Below the pieces are notes generated by a model. The model ran no database searches. It saw only the letters and a list, made by a program, of their open reading frames with translations, and was not told the DNA's origin. 64,000 bases of DNA, taken from the sequence record MT150133.1, one strand, 5' to 3'. A program made the translations under genes and the position numbers. Shown here in pieces: positions 19,033 to 64,000 of the stretch. Source of the DNA: Enterobacteria phage vB_EcoM_IME540. The number at the start of each line of letters is the position of its first letter. Position 1 is the first letter of the stretch.

Positions 19033-19698
19033 TCAAAATTTTATTTTACGGCCTTTATTCCAACCTTCAGGAATAATATCCGTTTTGTTAATACGTTTAG
19101 AAACTTTTTCTTCTAAAGAATGAATCCACATTTTTCCATATCCGGAATTATTTTCACCTTGTTGGTGTTTATTTCTGGCGTGAGATTCTTTCATTTTATT
19201 TTTGGTTTCATCTGAATGGGTCTTACCCAAGAAAGATTTAGTATTTGAAAATTTCTCTCTATACTTAGGATTATCCCAAAGTTGTTTAAACCTTTCCGAA
19301 CCCATTTTACGATATTTTTCTTTAAGGTCTGGGTCGTTCTCAAATCTGGTTTTAAAAGCGGCAACTCCTTTTAAGGAAGCTTCTTTCTTTTTATCTAAAT
19401 ATTCTTCAGTGTTTAAATGGTCCCAACCACCTTCACCACCTAATTTCAAATTATAAACATCAGGGCGCTTTAAAAACTCTTCAGTCACAATATTCTTTTC
19501 TGACTCAAACATAGAGGTTTTATCGTCAAAGAACTCTAATATTTCTTTAGAGAAATTTTCTATACCGTATTTGACCTGGGCCCTTTTTAAGAGTTTACCA
19601 GAACCAAAATATGCATCATTCAAATTTTCGGTTGAATGGGCGCCTATATAGATTTTATTATTAATTTTGTTTGTTATTTTATAAGTGTAATGGAACAT
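19033..19698 (-). CDS. GIY-YIG homing endonuclease-like protein (segB-like, within tRNA cluster)
   Basis: N-terminus YTYKITNKINNKIYIGAHST...YFGSG; sits between two tRNA genes as segB does in T4. Confidence 0.7.
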   Translation of the reverse strand: MFHYTYKITNKINNKIYIGAHSTENLNDAYFGSGKLLKRAQVKYGIENFSKEILEFFDDKTSMFESEKNIVTEEFLKRPDVYNLKLGGEGGWDHLNTEEYLDKKKEASLKGVAAFKTRFENDPDLKEKYRKMGSERFKQLWDNPKYREKFSNTKSFLGKTHSDETKNKMKESHARNKHQQGENNSGYGKMWIHSLEEKVSKRINKTDIIPEGWNKGRKIKF

Positions 19699-23911: not shown

Positions 23912-24748
23912 TTAAGAATTCTTCCATACTTTCTGAGCTGAGTAACGCTTACCTTTCGATACAAATTGCTGAAGCGGTAATCCTATTACATTAGCCCAAT
24001 CAGACGGTTTTATCTCTACTAAAGGTCCCTTGATATTTCCAGGGATATAAGCTTTAATCATCACGTCGGCGCCAGCGAATCCTTTTACCTTACTCCAATC
24101 GATTTTTAATTTAGTCGAGTTCGTAATGGTAGGCGTACTCGCGTATTGCTTCAGCAATTCTTCCAGAAATTGTTGACGTGCTTTAGGTGGAATATAGTGT
24201 AAGTTCAGTCCGTACATTAAATTATGCTTACCTAACCCAAGATAAATTATTAAAGGATATTTGTCCCAGTATGGTAGGGTATCCTTATGTTTGGCATCAT
24301 AGATATAAGCATAAAGCTTACCAGGAGACGGTTTAGATACCTGGTGTCCACGAATTCCTTTCTTTAATGTTTCTGTAAACCATTTAGCTGATTTATTGTT
24401 TATGGCAGCGCCTTCGTTAGCAATCTTATCGCGAATACTCTTTCTAAAACTATTCACCAAAATTAATTGACGTTCTGCTTTGGTTAATTTATTGCCAGGT
24501 TTCTTCTGAAGTTTTTCAACCTGTACAGCAGTTTTAATTCGACTCGAGTATCGAGACATCGCAGATGTAAAGCTAGAATACTTGATGCCTTTATCTTCAG
24601 CGAATTTCTTAGCCGAAACACCTTTAGCCTTAGCGTTGGCATATTCAACGCCTAAAGTTATCCATTGTTGTTCTGAACGAGTAGGCTTGGAACCTTTTGT
24701 AGTTTCAGTAGCCTCGTTGATGTAAGAAAATATACTCATCCTTTCCAT
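23912..24748 (-). CDS. 2: gp2 DNA end-protector protein
   Basis: 278 aa; synteny between 3 and 4; size matches T4 gp2. Confidence 0.75.
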
Positions 24749-25185
24749 CCTAATTTTTTCAGTGAGTTTTCGGTAATCAATCTGAAATTAATTCCCATTT
24801 TATCTGCTGTAGCTTTAGCAGCTTTCCATTTATCTTTATTTACACTCCATGTATAATGTTCGTTGATATATCTCTTTTTAGCAGCTGTAGTCATTTTAGC
24901 AGGCGCCGCTGGAGGATGGGTCTCTTTAAAAGGTTTGACTTCGAAAAAGAATTGTTGACCATTGTCGAACTTCACCCAGAAGTCCATAAAATACCGACGT
25001 TTCTTTCCATCAGCGTTACTAAAATATGGAATCACAACCTCTTCCGAGTTCCACTGGACGACATTAGGATGGTTATCAAGCCAACGCATAAGCCATGCTT
25101 CCCAAGAGGAACGATATTGGATTTTCTTCCAATCACCTTTATATTTTTGTAAGTTTGTAGGTTTAAATTTCCCTGAGTAGGCCAT
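24736..25185 (-). CDS. 4: gp4 head completion protein
   Basis: 149 aa; size/synteny; divergent from gene 53 across palindromic late promoter region. Confidence 0.85.
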
Positions 25186-25195
25186 AGTGCCTCCT

Positions 25196-25203
25196 TATAA
25201 ATA
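25196..25203 (+). promoter_or_regulatory. late promoter (TATAAATA) for gene 53
   Basis: Exact TATAAATA 28 nt upstream of ATG. Confidence 0.6.
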
Positions 25204-25210
25204 TTAATAT

Positions 25211-25218
25211 TATTTATA
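25211..25218 (-). promoter_or_regulatory. late promoter (TATAAATA) for gene 4
   Basis: Exact TATAAATA on minus strand 26 nt upstream of gene 4 ATG. Confidence 0.6.
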
Positions 25219-25230
25219 CTCGGAGGCACT

Positions 25231-25833
25231 ATGCTCTTCTCATTTTTCGATCCCATCGATTACGAATCAAAAACAGTCAAGCCAGATTCCGGCTCATTAA
25301 CTGATGCCGATGTACTGAGCGTACCGATGACTGATATATTTAGAAACTATAAAGAATATTTTGATAAAGTGGCTAAAAATTATACACTTAAAACATATTA
25401 TATCAGTGGGGCCCCTCGTCCAGAAGAATTAGCCCATCAACTTTATGGTAACGTGCAATTATATTGGGTCCTTTTAATGTGTAACAATATCTATGACCCT
25501 TATTACGGCTGGATTACAGGCCAAGAATCTGCGTATCAAGCAGCTATTCAACGTTATGCTACTGCAGGCGGAAACCAAGTCCTTTATCATGTCAATGAAA
25601 AGGGTGAGAAATTCTGGAATCTAGTAAATACTCCGGAAAATCCTTATACTTGGTACGATAAAGGTGATACAGAAAAACGTTATCCTCAATATGAAGGTCC
25701 TTTGGCTGCAGTAGATATTTACGAGGACGCCATTCGTAAAAATGAATATAAGCGCGAAATAAAGATTATAGACCCTAATGACATCGAGTCCTTTGTTTCC
25801 GCTTTAATTAGAGAAATGGAGAAGTCACTCTAA
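25231..25833 (+). CDS. 53: gp53 baseplate wedge protein
   Basis: 200 aa; MLFSFFDPIDYESKTV...PMTDIFRNYKEYF...YYISGAPRPEELA... close to T4 gp53. Confidence 0.9.
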   Translation: MLFSFFDPIDYESKTVKPDSGSLTDADVLSVPMTDIFRNYKEYFDKVAKNYTLKTYYISGAPRPEELAHQLYGNVQLYWVLLMCNNIYDPYYGWITGQESAYQAAIQRYATAGGNQVLYHVNEKGEKFWNLVNTPENPYTWYDKGDTEKRYPQYEGPLAAVDIYEDAIRKNEYKREIKIIDPNDIESFVSALIREMEKSL

Positions 25834-26468
25834 TGTTTTATTACGTCTATAAAATAACCAATATAATTAATGGTAAATTTTATATCGGTGCTCATAGTAC
25901 ATCAAATATGGATGACGGTTATATGGGCTCAGGTAAATTAATTAAACGCGCTATACTAAAATATGGCATTGAAAATTTCAAAAAAGAAATATTAAAATTT
26001 GTTGATTCTAAAAAAGAAATGTATGAACTCGAAAAAGAACTTGTTGTCCTTACTGAAAATTCATACAATTTAAAACCGGGCGGTTCCGGTGGGTTTTTAA
26101 AACATGATAACTTTAAAGGCAGGTCCCATAGTCAGAAAACCAAAGATATTATGAGCGCTAATAACTCAGGCAAAAACAATCCTATGTATGGTAGAAAACG
26201 AGACCAACACGGAGAAAAAGCACCTAATTATGGTAAAAAGTGCTCTGAGGCTAAAAGAAAATTACTTTCTGAAAAATCTAAATCCTATTTTGAAAACCTT
26301 CAAACCATAACTAAAAATCTCGGCTTTGGTCCTACATCGGTTGAAACTAGATATGTATCAAGACATATTAAAAAGCTAGGATTAGATTTTTATAAATTTA
26401 ATCGTGATATAACAGAAACTAATGTTTCCATAGTTAGAAATATTTTAGAACAAAGGAAAGCGCTATGA
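25833..26468 (+). CDS. GIY-YIG homing endonuclease-like protein inserted between genes 53 and 5
   Basis: N-terminus YVYKITNIINGKFYIGAHST...YMGSG, paralogous to 19033-19698; NPMYG motif. Confidence 0.7.
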   Translation: MFYYVYKITNIINGKFYIGAHSTSNMDDGYMGSGKLIKRAILKYGIENFKKEILKFVDSKKEMYELEKELVVLTENSYNLKPGGSGGFLKHDNFKGRSHSQKTKDIMSANNSGKNNPMYGRKRDQHGEKAPNYGKKCSEAKRKLLSEKSKSYFENLQTITKNLGFGPTSVETRYVSRHIKKLGLDFYKFNRDITETNVSIVRNILEQRKAL

Positions 26469-28207
26469 TTAACATGTCTGATAATGTAAGTTGGTTCGTC
26501 GGTGTGGTTGAAGACCGTATGGACCCACTCCAACAAGGACGCGTTCGAGTTCGTGTCTGGGGCCTGCATCCTTACGAAAAGGTCCAAGGTCCTGTAAAAG
26601 GCCTTCGTACAGAGGATTTACCGTGGATGTCCGTATTAATGCCTACATCTTCTGCCTCTGTTTCTGGTATCCAAACCGCTATGACTGGTATGGTTCCAGG
26701 TACTCAGGTTTATGGGCACTTTCTTGATAAGTGGAAATTAAACGGGCTTGTCCTCGGTACATATGGTTCCGCTTCAAGACAAAAGGCTAATCCTAATGAA
26801 GGTTTTAGTGACCCGACAGGTCAATACCCACTTTATTTGGGTAATGATGCTGCAGCACTAAACCGAGGTGGTGAAGTTGGATACGATGCCACTTCTAACG
26901 TAATACAAGATGCAAACACCGATGTAGGTATTAACCCAGACGGTTTGGATTTGAGCCAAGTCAAGCCTGATGATAATCCTAATTTCACAATAGAAAACAT
27001 GCTTCATCGTGATGAAGGGCTTAGACTGAAGGTATATTGGGATACCGAAGGTTATCCTACTATAGGTATAGGCCACCTTATCACACCACAACCTATTAGA
27101 GATATGAATCGAATAAACAAAATATTATCTAATCAGGTAGGACGAGAAGTTAAAGGTAACCCTGGTGCAATATCAATGGATGAGGCTTCTAAATTATTCC
27201 AAGAAGACCTTAAAAAAGTCCAAAACGATATAGGTCGGCATAGTGTTGTAGGTCCTGTTTACAATAAAGAAAACCGTTCAAGACAAATGGCTCTTGAAAA
27301 CATGGCTTTCCAAATGGGATTAGGTGGATTGGCTAAATTCCGTGGAATGCTTAGTGCAATGCTAATAGGCGATTATAAAAAGGCATTTGAGGAAGCTCGT
27401 AATTCAGTATGGTTTAACCAAACTAAAGGTCGCGCATCAAGGGTGTCAATGATTATCCTCACAGGTAACATGGAATCATATGGTATTATGGCCCCTAAAG
27501 AAAGGTCATTTAATGGCCGTTCGTATAGAATGATTCAAACCTTTGTGGCCCCTACAAATTCAGACCCTGCCGACCCGTGGACTCCAGAAGACACAAGGAT
27601 TCTTTTTAAAGAACCTGATTCTAGTTATAAAGGCGAATATCCATATGTCCAAACCATGCAAACTGAAGGCGGGCATATCCAAGAATTCGATAATACCCCA
27701 GGGCAAGAACGATACCGTTTAATCCATCCTACCGGTAGTTATGAAGAAGTTGCTCCTGACGGACGTAAAACTTCTAAGACGGTAGCCGATGGTTATTATA
27801 TGACCCAAGGCGATTCAAATACTTATGTTGGTGGTAATAATAAGGTCAATATAGGCGGCGATGAAACCTATTATAATATGGCAAACGTTCGTCGTCAAAC
27901 TGACGGGTCTGAAAGCATCCATATTCGTGGTAATGAAACTAAAACAGTAGAAGGTGACGGAACCCTTATTGTTAAAGGAAACGTAACAATTCTTGTCGAG
28001 GGTAGTGCTGATATAACTGTTAAGGGCGATGCTAAAACATTAGTTGAAGGCAATCATGACTATACCGTAAATGGAAACGTTAAATGGTCTGTAAATGGAA
28101 ACGTTGATATGACTGTTGCAGGTAATTGGTCTGAAACTATGTCAACTATGAGTTCTATTGCATCAGGTCAATATACTATTGATGGTTCGAGGATTGACAT
28201 TGGCTAA
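26465..28207 (+). CDS. 5: gp5 baseplate hub/tail lysozyme (cell-puncturing device)
   Basis: 580 aa; internal lysozyme domain (YWDTEGYPTIGIGHLI) and C-terminal beta-helix VxGxxxxx repeats. Confidence 0.92.
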   Translation: MINMSDNVSWFVGVVEDRMDPLQQGRVRVRVWGLHPYEKVQGPVKGLRTEDLPWMSVLMPTSSASVSGIQTAMTGMVPGTQVYGHFLDKWKLNGLVLGTYGSASRQKANPNEGFSDPTGQYPLYLGNDAAALNRGGEVGYDATSNVIQDANTDVGINPDGLDLSQVKPDDNPNFTIENMLHRDEGLRLKVYWDTEGYPTIGIGHLITPQPIRDMNRINKILSNQVGREVKGNPGAISMDEASKLFQEDLKKVQNDIGRHSVVGPVYNKENRSRQMALENMAFQMGLGGLAKFRGMLSAMLIGDYKKAFEEARNSVWFNQTKGRASRVSMIILTGNMESYGIMAPKERSFNGRSYRMIQTFVAPTNSDPADPWTPEDTRILFKEPDSSYKGEYPYVQTMQTEGGHIQEFDNTPGQERYRLIHPTGSYEEVAPDGRKTSKTVADGYYMTQGDSNTYVGGNNKVNIGGDETYYNMANVRRQTDGSESIHIRGNETKTVEGDGTLIVKGNVTILVEGSADITVKGDAKTLVEGNHDYTVNGNVKWSVNGNVDMTVAGNWSETMSTMSSIASGQYTIDGSRIDIG

Positions 28208-57003: not shown

Positions 57004-58287
57004 ATGGCAAAGATTAACGAATTACTGCGCGAGTCAACAACTACTTCCAGCAACTCATTGGGTCGCCCTAATCTTGTTGCTTTGACCCGTGCTACAACCA
57101 AATTGATTTACCGTGATATTATCGCCGAACAACGTACTAGCCAGCCTATTGCTGCACTGTATGGTGTCAAATATCTTACCCCTGATAATGAATTTAGTTT
57201 CCAGACAGGTGCCTCTTATGGTGGTGAAGTTGGTTCTAAAGACCGTGAAACTATCCCAGAACTCACAGATAAGGCCCAGGCGATTGCTCAGGGTGAATAT
57301 TTCAAGTACCAGAATGTGGTTTATAAGGCTCTTAAAGCAAGCCCACTCGCGTCCACTAGCGCCACAGAATTGGCTGATGCTCTTCAAGAAGGTTTAGTGT
57401 CATTAACATGTCGTCTGGTTCCTGATGCTGCCCATACCACTAAATTTGAAGCGAGTGATGTAGAAATCTCTGATGCTGTATTCCAGGTTAATAAATGGAA
57501 TGCTCCGGTTAAGACCCGTAAATTGAAGACGGCTTTGACTGTAGAATTAGCGCAGGATATGGAATCAAATGGCTTTGACGCGCCGGCGTTCTTAGAAGAC
57601 CTCTTGGCTACAGTAATGGCAGATGAAATTAATAAAGACGTTCTGCAATCTCTAATAACCGTATCCAAACGTTATAAAGTTACTGGTGTATCTGATAACG
57701 GCATCATCGATTTGTCTTATGACAGTGCTCCTGAATCTGCACGTAAACTTTATGAACTCGTTTGTGAGATGAATTCTGAAATCCAGAAAACTACTTCTTA
57801 TTCTGGCACGTTTGTTGTGGCTTCAAGTCGTGTGGCTGCAATGCTTGCAGGTTCTGGCTGGTTAAAACATAAACCCGAAGATAATAATTGGCTTCCGGAA
57901 ACTGCATACGGATATTTGTTGAATGGTCTGCCTCTGTTTTGTGACGTTAACAGTCCATTAGATTATGTTACCGTTGGTGTTAAAGAGAATTACGGCGGTA
58001 ATGAAGTTGTCGGTTCTATTTTCTACGCTCCCTATACCGAAGGCTTAGATTTAGATGACCAAGAACACGTCGGTGCTTATAAGGTTATTGTTGACCCGGA
58101 TTCATTACAACCTTCTATTTCTCTGATGGTTCGTTATGCACTATCAGCTAACCCGTACACCGTGGCTAAAGACGATAAAGAAGCTCGTGTTATCGATGCA
58201 ACCAATATGGATTTAATGGCTGGACAGAGCAATATGTCTTATCTGGTTGGCGTTAAACTTCCGGCAATTATTTACGAGGCTGATTAA
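57004..58287 (+). CDS. 24: capsid vertex protein gp24
   Basis: 427 aa (same length as T4 gp24); TATAAATA at 56968-56975. Confidence 0.88.
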   Translation: MAKINELLRESTTTSSNSLGRPNLVALTRATTKLIYRDIIAEQRTSQPIAALYGVKYLTPDNEFSFQTGASYGGEVGSKDRETIPELTDKAQAIAQGEYFKYQNVVYKALKASPLASTSATELADALQEGLVSLTCRLVPDAAHTTKFEASDVEISDAVFQVNKWNAPVKTRKLKTALTVELAQDMESNGFDAPAFLEDLLATVMADEINKDVLQSLITVSKRYKVTGVSDNGIIDLSYDSAPESARKLYELVCEMNSEIQKTTSYSGTFVVASSRVAAMLAGSGWLKHKPEDNNWLPETAYGYLLNGLPLFCDVNSPLDYVTVGVKENYGGNEVVGSIFYAPYTEGLDLDDQEHVGAYKVIVDPDSLQPSISLMVRYALSANPYTVAKDDKEARVIDATNMDLMAGQSNMSYLVGVKLPAIIYEAD

Positions 58288-59567
58288 TGTCTAAGATTGT
58301 AGACCTAATTAAAGAATCCACATTGACGGCTGCCAGCTCGGTTGGCCGTCCTGCTCTTCTTTCATACACCCAAGCAACTAATAAACGAATCTTTAAAGCC
58401 CTAGTTGCTGAACAAAAAACAAATCAACCGGTTGCTGCTCTGTATGGGGTACGTGTACTGAATCCTGACGACAAAATGACTTATCTTGGTGGAGCAACAT
58501 TTGCGGGCCAGATTGGTATGACGGAACGTGAAAATATTCCAGAATTTACTGATTCATCTACAGCTTATGCGGTCGGTGATATGTTCCAGTTTGAAAGCGT
58601 AGTGTTTAAAGTTCTAGAAGCATCTCCTTTCGCCGGAACCACAGAAACCAACCTCAGCGAAGTTATTTCTGAAGCAGTGGCAGCCGGCCATATCCGTATG
58701 GCGTCGGATGCTGCTATTACTTCTAAATTTGAACAAGGCCATCCTGAAATTGCTGAAACCGGATTCCGTATCGACAAATGGCAATCTGAAGTTAAATCGC
58801 GTAAACTGAAAACTTCATTGACAGTCGAATTAGCCCAAGACCTAGAATCTAACGGGTTTAATGCTCCTAATTTCGTTGAAAATCTGCTAGGCATTCAAAT
58901 GGCAGAAGAAATTAATAAGGATGTATTACAGTCATTAATTACCGTGAGCTCTCGTTTTAAAGTCCAGGGTGTTTCTGAAAAGGGTGTATTAGACCTTACC
59001 AACCCTCGCTACGATAATGCCCAGGACCGTGCTCGCACATTATATTATTATATGTGTGAGATGAACTCTGCCGTCCAACGACAGACTTCTTTTGCCGGGA
59101 CTTATGCAGTAGCTAGTTCTCGTTGTGCTGCTATTCTCGCCGCCTCTGGTTGGGTTGAGAAAAAGGAAGACCAGGACGAATTGGCTTATGGTATATTAAA
59201 GAATGGCCTACCACTTTATGCTGATATGAATAGTCCATGTGATTATGTTATTGTTGGTGTAAATGCCCAGATGGGTGAAGGACAGACGGTCGCATCTTTA
59301 TATTATGCGCCTTATACGGAAGGTTTGAATGTGGTTGACGAAGAAGGTGATACTTCAGTTGGTGAATTTAAGGTTATTGTTGACCCGGAAAGCTTACAAC
59401 CTACAGTAGCATTGCTTGCTCGTTATGCATTGACTGCAAACCCTTATACCGTCGCTAAGGACGATAAAGAAGCCCGCATTATTGATGGTTCTGATATGGA
59501 CAAAATGGCTAATCAAAGTCAATTGAGTTCTTATCTCGGCGTAAAATTACCGCCTTTAGAAAAATAA
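58287..59567 (+). CDS. capsid vertex protein gp24 paralog (second copy)
   Basis: 426 aa, alignable along full length with the upstream gp24 copy, roughly half identical by eye; ATGA-coupled. Confidence 0.8.
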   Translation: MSKIVDLIKESTLTAASSVGRPALLSYTQATNKRIFKALVAEQKTNQPVAALYGVRVLNPDDKMTYLGGATFAGQIGMTERENIPEFTDSSTAYAVGDMFQFESVVFKVLEASPFAGTTETNLSEVISEAVAAGHIRMASDAAITSKFEQGHPEIAETGFRIDKWQSEVKSRKLKTSLTVELAQDLESNGFNAPNFVENLLGIQMAEEINKDVLQSLITVSSRFKVQGVSEKGVLDLTNPRYDNAQDRARTLYYYMCEMNSAVQRQTSFAGTYAVASSRCAAILAASGWVEKKEDQDELAYGILKNGLPLYADMNSPCDYVIVGVNAQMGEGQTVASLYYAPYTEGLNVVDEEGDTSVGEFKVIVDPESLQPTVALLARYALTANPYTVAKDDKEARIIDGSDMDKMANQSQLSSYLGVKLPPLEK

Positions 59568-61885: not shown

Positions 61886-62557
61886 TTATTTTAAAGTGAC
61901 AAAAGATGAGTTACGAGTTTCACGTACTAATACTGAACCATTACGATTAATGTAATAAATCAGACTAAATAATGTTTGGTGGGCAGAAGGATGTTGGAAA
62001 GCAGTTGGACGTTCTTTCCAATCCGGAGTCTCAGAAATCCATTGGTAAATCCACCAAGGAACGGTGCAATAACCTGGGTTCTTACCGATAAGCAAAAGAT
62101 TAGGACTGAAGTTTTCAGGTAAAGAGAATACAGGTTTTTCAGATTCAACAACCTTGGCTATAGCCCCTTTGAATTTCTCTTCGTCAAATGGAACATCCTC
62201 TTCGATAATCTCTACCTTAGGAAGTTCGGCTACCTCAACGACTTCTACTGCAGCCTCAGGGGCATCGAACAACAGGGTGGCTTCTTCTTTAGCTGGTTCA
62301 GCACCATCAACAAATTCGTTAGCACCTGTAAGTTCGTCGGCAGCATCAATCAAATCAGAAATGGACAACCCTTCGGTTTCTGGAAGTGGTTCGTCAGCCA
62401 AGGCTTTAAAGCCTTCAGAGATATCGATAATCAAATTATCAAACGAACGGGTTTTCTTAAGTTTTAAACCGAACTGTTCGCCGTATTCGATTAACTTAGC
62501 TTTAGCTTCTTTTTTATCTTCGAGTGCACGAAGCTCTTCAATATATTGAGTATCCAT
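61886..62557 (-). CDS. inh: prohead protease inhibitor Inh-like
   Basis: 223 aa; position between hoc and uvsW as in T4. Confidence 0.7.
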   Translation of the reverse strand: MDTQYIEELRALEDKKEAKAKLIEYGEQFGLKLKKTRSFDNLIIDISEGFKALADEPLPETEGLSISDLIDAADELTGANEFVDGAEPAKEEATLLFDAPEAAVEVVEVAELPKVEIIEEDVPFDEEKFKGAIAKVVESEKPVFSLPENFSPNLLLIGKNPGYCTVPWWIYQWISETPDWKERPTAFQHPSAHQTLFSLIYYINRNGSVLVRETRNSSFVTLK

Positions 62558-62576
62558 AATTAGTCTCTTGTTGGTG

Positions 62577-62584
62577 TATAAATA
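62577..62584 (+). promoter_or_regulatory. late promoter (TATAAATA) for uvsW
   Basis: Exact TATAAATA 28 nt upstream of ATG 62613. Confidence 0.55.
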
Positions 62585-62590
62585 TAACTA

Positions 62591-62598
62591 TATTTATA
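62591..62598 (-). promoter_or_regulatory. late promoter (TATAAATA) for inh
   Basis: Exact TATAAATA on minus strand 33 nt upstream of inh ATG. Confidence 0.55.
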
Positions 62599-62612
62599 AC
62601 TGAGAATTACTT

Positions 62613-64000
62613 ATGCAAATTCAAGTACATTTTGATAATTTTAGTCATGTCCGTATTGAATGCGATGAATCTACATTCTACGAACTCAGAGACTATTTTA
62701 GCTTTGAAGCTGATGGATATAAATTCAACCCTAAATTTCGTTATGGCCAATGGGACGGACGTATTCGCCTTCTGGATTACAACCGTAAACTTCCTTATGG
62801 ATTGGTCCCTCAAATTAAAAAGTTCGCTGAACAATTTGAATACTCTCTGTGGATTGACCCACGTATTCTTGAACAGGAAGATATTTCTCGTGAAGATTTT
62901 GATTCATGGGTAGCTTCTCAAGAAATTTATTCAGGGTCTACCAAGATTGAGCCTCATTGGTATCAGAATGAAGCCGTATACAACGGCCTGACAAAACGTC
63001 GTGCAATTCTGAATTTACCTACATCCGCAGGTAAATCATTAATCCAGGCGCTCCTGAGTCGATATTACGTTGAGAACTATGAAGGTAAAATCCTCATCTT
63101 AGTTCCTACTACTGCACTTGTCGACCAGATGATTAATGACTTCATCGATTATCGATTGTTCCCTAAAGCAGCAATGCTTGGTATTCGTTCAGGTACTGCT
63201 CGTGATTCCGATGCAATGATTTATGTTTCAACTTATCAAACCGCTATCAAGCAACCTAAAGAATGGTTTGCTCAGTTCGGTATGTTTATGAACGACGAAT
63301 GCCATTTGGCTACAGGTAAATCTATTTCTACTATCATCGAAGGCCTAACCAACTGTATGTTTAAATTCGGTTTGTCGGGTTCTTTAAAAGATGGTAAAGC
63401 TAATTTAATGCAATATATGGGCTTGTTTGGTGATGTGTTTAAGCCAGTATCCACCTCCCAATTAATGGAAGAAGGACAGGTTACTGACCTTAAAATCAAC
63501 AGTATTTTCCTTCGATACCCAGACGAATTCACGGTTAAAATGAAAGGTAAAGATTACCAATCAGAAATCAAGGTCATTACTAAGGCTACTCGTCGTAATA
63601 AATGGGTTGCTAATTTAGCTGTTAAACTCGCTAAGAAAGAAGAGAACGTATTCCTGATGTTTAAAAACATCGAACACGGTAAAACTCTTTTTGAAATGGT
63701 TAAAGAGCAACATAAAGAAGTTTATTACGTATCAGGTGAAGTTAATACCGAAACGCGTAATGCTCTGAAGGTAATGGCGGAAAATGGTAAGGGTATTATT
63801 GTTGTGGCAAGTTATGGTGTGTTCTCTACAGGTATTTCCGTTAAGAACCTTCACCACGTTGTATTTGCCCATCCAGTAAAATCTAAAATCATTGTACTCC
63901 AGACAATTGGTCGTGTACTCCGTAAACATGCCTCTAAATCAACAGCACAGGTGTGGGATATCATCGACGACATGGGTGTTAAGCCTAAATCAGCTACGGC
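62613..64000 (+). CDS. uvsW: UvsW DNA helicase (5' partial, continues past window end)
   Basis: Hand translation from ATG 62613: MQIQVHFDNF...; helicase motif I LPTSAGKS, motif II MNDECH; not in ORF track because no stop in window. Confidence 0.85.
   Translation, partial: MQIQVHFDNFSHVRIECDESTFYELRDYFSFEADGYKFNPKFRYGQWDGRIRLLDYNRKLPYGLVPQIKKFAEQFEYSLWIDPRILEQEDISREDFDSWVASQEIYSGSTKIEPHWYQNEAVYNGLTKRRAILNLPTSAGKSLIQALLSRYYVENYEGKILILVPTTALVDQMINDFIDYRLFPKAAMLGIRSGTARDSDAMIYVSTYQTAIKQPKEWFAQFGMFMNDECHLATGKSISTIIEGLTNCMFKFGLSGSLKDGKANLMQYMGLFGDVFKPVSTSQLMEEGQVTDLKINSIFLRYPDEFTVKMKGKDYQSEIKVITKATRRNKWVANLAVKLAKKEENVFLMFKNIEHGKTLFEMVKEQHKEVYYVSGEVNTETRNALKVMAENGKGIIVVASYGVFSTGISVKNLHHVVFAHPVKSKIIVLQTIGRVLRKHASKSTAQVWDIIDDMGVKPKSAT

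Follow-up and report, generated by a model that had tools for sequence, protein, structure and literature searches.

Genes 4 and 53 of Enterobacteria phage vB_EcoM_IME540 are read away from each other across a gap of only 45 bp, and the sequence that joins their two start codons is largely symmetric. The question raised by this locus is whether the symmetry is a device in its own right or a consequence of the signals that so short a gap has to hold. We analyzed the locus within a stretch of 64,000 nucleotides (nt) of sequence record MT150133.1, hereafter called the window. An earlier note on this DNA had described positions 25183–25233 as a perfectly symmetric divergent late-promoter region that might form a cruciform or co-regulate head-completion and baseplate genes. 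Our analysis indicates that the region is very probably a compact two-way T4-type late-promoter module, orthologous to that between genes 4 and 53 of T4, whose dyad is mostly a by-product that requires no function.

Genes 4 and 53 Diverge from a Pair of Crossed Late Promoters

The window belongs to a Dhakavirus, a WG01/JS98-like T4 relative of the family Straboviridae. Over the region, identity is 99.2% with Shigella phage PSD9 and Escherichia phage LHE83 and 91–93% with JS98-type phages. The gene 4 open reading frame (ORF) is labelled head completion protein in the 99%-identical phages and shares 62% identity with T4 gp4. T4 has the same divergent pair of genes, at 77337/77385, and the assignment of a divergent late-promoter region to the interval between genes 4 and 53 in the earlier note was borne out.

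A late promoter, dependent on gp55, gp33 and gp45, was defined as an 8-bp TATAAATA box that precedes the start by about one helical turn (PMC2988020, PMC1524935). In T4 the box spans positions −13 to −6, the first of which may be A or T (PMC1524935), and the promoters need an A/T-rich segment directly downstream of the box and have no −35 element (PMC2988020). The 45-bp gap between genes 4 and 53 contains two exact TATAAATA boxes on opposite strands. Positions 25195–25218 are 100% A/T, and each box is the downstream segment of the other. Both boxes lie 5′ of orthologues of T4 late genes, with leaders of 20 nt (gene 4) and 22 nt (gene 53) and a GGAGG placed 4 nt before each start codon. The TATAAATA box occurs 20 times in the window against 7.6 expected and is oriented with the genes, and a plus box followed by a minus box within 25 nt occurs twice against 0.02 expected. 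Gene 55 itself lies outside the window; phage ABTNLsp5, which is of the WG01 clade and shares an exact 67-nt region with the window at this junction, encodes a full-length gp55 homologue 79% identical to T4 gp55. At the level of sequence, the gene 4–53 region has every property of a gp55-type late promoter pair.

The order of the boxes differs from that given in the earlier note, which took them to be back-to-back. The plus box lies on the left, on the gene 4 side, and reads rightwards, and the minus box lies on the right, on the gene 53 side, and reads leftwards; the boxes are thus crossed, and each is inside the leader of the other's gene. Start positions were predicted by the T4 −13 to −6 rule, which reproduces the predicted RB69 promoter Pl:80613, where the plus-strand 43-nt window puts +1 six nt after the box. 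The features of the junction are collected in Table 1.

Table 1. Features of the gene 4–53 junction and the second crossed box pair, in window coordinates (aa, amino acids; SD, Shine-Dalgarno sequence)
Feature	Position	Strand	Remarks
Gene 4, head completion/head closure protein	24736–25185	−	149-aa ORF; CAT 25183–25185 is the start codon
Gene 4 translation-initiation arm CATAGTGCCTCC	25183–25194	−	Left repeat arm; start codon 25183–25185, 4-nt spacer, SD GGAGG 25190–25194
A/T-only tract, 24 bp	25195–25218		Both boxes and the gap; proposed shared melting region, read from sequence
Late-promoter box TATAAATA for gene 53	25196–25203	+	Reads rightwards; predicted start A 25209, leader 22 nt
Inter-box gap, 7 bp	25204–25210		Holds both predicted starts; apical loop of the hairpin in region-spanning RNA
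Late-promoter box TATAAATA for gene 4	25211–25218	−	Reads leftwards; predicted start A 25205, leader 20 nt
Gene 53 translation-initiation arm GGAGGCACTATG	25222–25233	+	Right repeat arm; SD GGAGG 25222–25226, 4-nt spacer, ATG 25231–25233
Gene 53, baseplate wedge subunit	25231–25833	+	200-aa ORF; ATG 25231–25233; from relatives' annotation and tblastn against loci
Second crossed pair, inh–uvsW	62577–62598		Plus box 62577–62584, minus box 62591–62598, 6-bp gap; no palindromic arms

The Crossed Layout Recurs in T4-like Phages

The T4 junction reads CAT TGGATTCTCC T TATAAATA GATAATA TATTTATA AAC AGGAGG GCCC ATG. In both T4 and RB69, as in the window, the orthologous genes 4 and 53 flank crossed TATAAATA boxes separated by 7 bp, with a strong SD on each side, and the intergenic length across the three phages is 45–61 bp; unlike those of the window, the SD-to-start arms of T4 and RB69 are not complementary. 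For RB69, Nolan et al. (2006) predicted Pl:80613(+) and Pl:80684(−) (PMC1524935, Additional file 5), and these correspond to the boxes of the RB69 4–53 junction (plus 80638–80645, minus 80653–80660, gap 7 bp). Within the literature searched, no paper connected gene 53 with a late promoter. The gene 4–53 promoter pair is real, ordinary and already known in kind, given the earlier prediction of the RB69 pair.

Crossed boxes were also found at the 4–53 junction of three IMG/VR lineages whose gp4 is 74–85% identical (gaps 6–10), and at the gene 4 junction of Kanagawavirus (gap 10), Mosigvirus and phage SonariX (gap 7 in each), Gualtarvirus, where gene 4 is preceded by an inserted homing endonuclease gene (gap 9), and phiN3 and syn9, where the partner is gene 48 and the box is CTAAATA-like. 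The box variants at these crossed junctions are lineage-specific. The whole T4 genome contains only three close opposite-strand late-box pairs, all at divergent junctions with a late box on both strands, and two of the three are crossed (4–53, gap 7, and inh–segE, gap 6), the third, 26–51, being overlapping. Both divergent strand switches of the window, 4–53 and inh–uvsW (62557/62613), are crossed. Crossing is a recurrent means in T4-like phages of packing two promoters and two leaders into 45–60 bp.

Two broader surveys bear on this comparison. As a census of crossed against back-to-back pairs, viral contigs were scanned for TATAAATAN{0,20}TATTTATA; the matches listed were unrelated A/T-rich contigs, for example from giant viruses, and the whole-genome analysis of T4 was used instead. 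A gp4 profile search of viral contigs returned 80 distant environmental loci, in almost none of which gene 53 adjoins gene 4, so that these loci are uninformative for the junction.

Several observations were made on the junctions themselves. At inh–uvsW (62555–62615), CAT occupies 62555–62557 and the opposite ATG begins at 62613, both with weak ribosome-binding sites, and T4 inh–segE is laid out alike. CTAAATA-type boxes stand in place of TATAAATA at the gene 4 junction of KP27, SemperBestia, phiN3, syn9 and phi-ST2, and in phi-ST2, syn9 and phiN3 the divergent partner of gene 4 is gene 48, not gene 53. Because such distant phages have boxes at this place, some with gene 48 as the partner, gene 4 appears from these sequences to mark a divergent head/tail junction across a very wide range of T4-like phages. 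In Providencia phage PSTRCR_121 (784–1511 of the locus), a homing endonuclease gene lies between the junction and gene 4, on the strand of gene 4, and the crossed boxes now lie between the endonuclease gene and gene 53; the endonuclease has therefore taken the late promoter and leader position of gene 4. Two start codons in the public records of relatives are probably mis-annotated. In phage JSE (locus 886–901), the annotated gp4 start lies 15 nt upstream of an ATG that follows GGAGG and matches the starts of the other gp4 proteins in alignment, and in Serratia phage SP1 (locus 788–901), gp53 is annotated well downstream of a GGAGG-preceded GTG that encodes the conserved LFSFF N-terminus.

Proposed Mode of Transcription

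We propose that the junction holds two gp55-type late promoters without a −35 element, crossed on opposite strands and 7 bp apart. Transcription would begin at about 25209 rightwards and about 25205 leftwards, so that the two mRNAs would diverge from nearly one point. Each leader, about 20 nt long, would run through the complement of the opposing box and then a strong GGAGG, which 4 nt separate from the start codon. The crossing would allow 45 bp to hold both promoters with their leaders and would give each promoter its A/T-only downstream segment for melting. Because both open complexes would need the same 24-bp A/T-only region, only one polymerase could be accommodated at a time, and the two promoters would be mutually exclusive.

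The choice between them may lie with the sliding clamp. The orientation of gp45 is set by the interrupted strand, and activation by the clamp is limited to a promoter that has the interruption in its non-transcribed strand (PMC2988020). Since gp45 activates one polarity per clamp orientation, the strand on which the clamp was loaded would decide which promoter fires on each DNA copy. The co-regulation suggested in the earlier note is retained only as shared timing, which is trivial because both promoters are gp55-type; the crossed geometry would imply mutual exclusion on each DNA copy and not co-activation. The predicted late leaders alone fold weakly (−5 to −6 kcal/mol). As the late mRNAs would start in the loop of the hairpin and fold weakly, both ribosome-binding sites would be free.

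The Dyad Is Largely Accounted for by the Facing Signals

The arms CATAGTGCCTCC and GGAGGCACTATG form a perfect 12-nt inverted repeat, and the bases and coordinates quoted in the earlier note were exact throughout, as was its statement that both genes have an identical 12-nt SD-plus-start context. Its description of the whole 51 nt as nearly palindromic needs correction. On a single axis only 18 of 25 pairs are complementary, and the A/T core has an axis of its own that is 1 nt off, which gives two nested dyads. In a repeat search, the arms extended to 21 nt at 86% (25174–25194/25222–25242) with an inner 11-nt dyad at 91%, and the predicted fold consists of 12 bp plus 8 bp with a 1 × 3 internal loop.

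When inverted repeats were required to be perfect, to have arms of 12 nt or more and to be separated by no more than 60 nt, the 4–53 arms were the sole case in the window. By first-order Markov simulation, 0.39 such repeats would be expected per 64 kb, and a perfect 12-nt repeat is therefore not remarkable by itself. Conservation of the perfect palindrome in T4-like relatives, which the earlier note had named as a check, was not found beyond one clade, and the absence from relatives by which that note would have its reading refuted therefore largely holds for the perfect form. The exact 67-nt stretch 25175–25241, arms included, occurs in 13 records, all from the WG01/QL01/MX01/PSD9 clade. Over this stretch, about 35 Dhakavirus records of the JS98 type show 95.6% identity, and the arms of the JS98-type loci sampled differ by one inserted nucleotide and by mismatches (for example CATAGTTGCCTCC versus GGAGGCCCTATG), with no compensating change on the opposite arm in any of them. 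The perfect 12-mer is absent from T4, Mosigvirus and others. The conserved element is the promoter pair and not the arms.

RNA spanning the region is predicted to fold at −25.5 kcal/mol (plus strand, z −8) and −24.6 kcal/mol (minus strand, z −9) in the window, at about −19 kcal/mol in JS98-type Dhakavirus, at −18 to −19 kcal/mol in Krischvirus JSE, where 13 of 14 arm positions are paired, at −13 to −15 kcal/mol in T4 and at −7 to −12 kcal/mol in most other lineages. These values were compared with a constrained null in which the boxes, SD cores and start codons were fixed and the remaining 19–36 positions were shuffled. For the window the null was −15.0 ± 2.4 kcal/mol (observed p = 0.001–0.004), and about 60% of the stability of the hairpin is therefore automatic. 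The other Dhakavirus types gave p = 0.004–0.05, and eight non-Dhakavirus lineages including T4 showed no excess of stability over the same null (p 0.1–0.9). Because it is limited to Dhakavirus, the excess symmetry is a genus-level peculiarity, strongest in one clade, and not a conserved feature of the junction. A search of Rfam gave only sub-threshold chance hairpin matches, the better one being mir-1684 (E = 0.16).

Taken as a by-product, the dyad would arise mostly automatically from box facing box and SD facing SD, and a minor alteration, for instance the loss of 1 nt from the vB_EcoM_005 type, would have given the WG01 lineage its perfect 12-mer. Another reading, in which identical ribosome-binding sites were selected to equalise the output of gp4 and gp53, was rejected because the two sides differ in relatives.

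Several points weigh against this account. The excess complementarity in Dhakavirus (p 0.001–0.05) goes beyond a pure by-product model, as does the 13/14 dyad at the gene 4 junction of Krischvirus JSE, and together they leave room for some selection or mutational bias towards symmetry. The geometry is not universal, the gene 4 junction being back-to-back in Schizotequatrovirus and carrying overlapping TATTTATAAATA boxes in Muldoonvirus, an arrangement also seen at T4 26–51. The starts at 25205 (−) and 25209 (+) are rule-based predictions, and mutual exclusion and the choice by clamp orientation are what we infer, rather than observe, for the 4–53 junction.

Alternative Explanations of the Symmetry

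The perfect arms might come from mutational bias rather than selection. Quasi-palindrome template-switch mutation was first described in T4, and template switching during replication of a quasi-palindrome would copy one arm from the other and so perfect it. This origin of the perfect arms is conceivable, if rather doubtful. The perfect WG01 type is only a single 1-nt deletion away from the vB_EcoM_005 type (CATAGTCGCCTCC / GGAGGCACTATG), and the arms already agree at 11 of 12 positions across Dhakavirus. However, one such event is indistinguishable from an ordinary deletion, the polarity of the change is not inferable without a rooted tree, and the quasi-palindromic arms of other lineages have not been perfected.

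A second explanation makes the palindrome a functional RNA device. The T4 genes e, soc, 49 and I-TevI are established cases of hairpin-gated translation (PMC3014915), and by analogy, a 20-bp hairpin in read-through RNA would bury the downstream gene's SD and AUG, whereas internal late transcripts without the 5′ arm would be translated; in practice, gp4 would not be made from early leftward read-through RNA. The structure itself agrees with such a gate. In RNA of 25183–25233 the SD and AUG are fully paired in either strand, the gene 4-sense RNA folding at −24.6 kcal/mol (z −9.2), and both predicted late starts fall within the 7-nt apical loop 25204–25210, so that late transcripts, by the predicted starts only, would begin inside the structure and lack the 5′ arm. 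The window resembles the T4 examples in both respects, and the excess stability within Dhakavirus points the same way. A leftward early RNA is plausible: gene 5 contains repEA and repEB homologues in antisense orientation, the minus strand has an 11/12 sigma-70-like promoter at 27898–27870, and all T4 early and middle transcripts share the polarity of gene 4 (PMC2988020).

Against the gate, however, conservation beyond the fixed signals was not found: the excess is confined to Dhakavirus, variation within the genus breaks pairs and never compensates them, and T4 and seven other lineages have no stability beyond the automatic by-product. Leftward RNA from the candidate early promoter would meet a terminator-like hairpin at 25296–25278 (−) before it reached the junction, and the plus-strand half has no plausible source of read-through, with no plus-strand late box upstream within 25 kb. 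Unlike the helices of e, soc, 49 and I-TevI, that of the window is two-sided and takes its opposing strand from the SD and start codon of the partner gene, its extra pairing is neither conserved nor compensated, and the read-through transcript is hypothetical. We consider a gate of this type unlikely. The fuller proposal, in which one palindrome would gate translation on both sides and the crossed promoters would be chosen by gp45 clamp orientation, is likewise improbable; if it were true, the ratio of head-completion to baseplate expression would depend on which strand carries replication-derived interruptions.

The terminator-like hairpin comprises 8 pairs followed by ACTGTTTTTG. It is on the strand antisense to the beginning of gene 53, some 45 nt short of the junction, and may be coincidental, since conserved K-P...G-S codons encode its core. 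The homologues of T4 RepEB and RepEA, which belong to the oriE region, lie at 26490–26597 (−) and 27627–27749 (−), and the sigma-70-like promoter (TTGACG-17-TATAAT) is just upstream of the RepEA homologue. Because both homologues and the promoter are present, the window seems, from its sequence, to have kept the early unit that is transcribed antisense at T4 oriE.

That the DNA itself acts, by cruciform extrusion or as a dyad operator for a dimeric phage protein controlling both promoters, is very improbable: the single strands fold as DNA at −13.5 and −13.8 kcal/mol (z −7.5 and −8.1), a pure A/T centre favours extrusion, and T4 DsbA is reported to bind with low affinity to A/T-rich sites overlapping two late promoters (PMC2988020), but the arms are not conserved beyond one clade and are fully explained as SD plus start codon, and T4-type junction- and palindrome-cutting nucleases (gp49, gp46/47) would make a stable cruciform a liability. 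The cruciform raised in the earlier note found nothing in its support, and the region was rejected as a cruciform-forming palindrome, the dyad being interrupted by the 1 × 3 internal loop and the 7-nt centre, with 18 of 25 pairs on one axis and arms that vary in relatives.

Comparison with Bacterial Bidirectional Promoters

The late-promoter module proposed here shares with the bacterial bidirectional promoters described by Warman, Grainger and colleagues a pseudo-symmetrical A/T-rich core from which polymerase can proceed either way, one binding event excluding the other (PMC12825309). The bacterial promoters have overlapping sigma-70 hexamers and starts that are typically 18 bp apart, also 10 or 23 (PMC12825309), whereas the window has separate, crossed 8-bp gp55 boxes and predicted starts about 4 bp apart. 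A bacterial bidirectional promoter with a shared −10 element was therefore rejected for this junction, given the separate boxes, the 7-bp gap between them and the closeness of the starts. The T4 26–51 junction (TATTTATAAATA, about 23 bp) fits the bacterial class better than the window does.

Other Features of the Window

A 211-aa GIY-YIG seg-like homing endonuclease ORF at 25833–26468 (+) lies exactly between genes 53 and 5 and overlaps both gene boundaries. Its N-terminal domain is 49–57% identical to those of T4 SegC, SegD and SegE, and the 99%-identical PSD9 lacks the ORF, its genes 53 and 5 being directly adjacent. Other seg-like copies were found at 19698–19039 (−) and at about 4106–3948 (−). 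Two tandem ORFs of 427 and 426 aa, at 57004–58287 (+) and 58287–59567 (+), share 55% identity with each other and occupy the position of the capsid vertex gene 24; by sequence and position, this looks like a duplication of gene 24.

Significance of the Junction

The value of the junction as a discovery is small, an orthologue of the promoter pair being present in T4 and predicted in RB69. Its modest value is that it shows cleanly, in a natural setting, how crossing packs a pair of late promoters and their leaders into 45 bp. The natural variants within Dhakavirus, whose hairpins span −19 to −25 kcal/mol, would be usable to test both the silencing of read-through RNA and the competition between crossed promoters.

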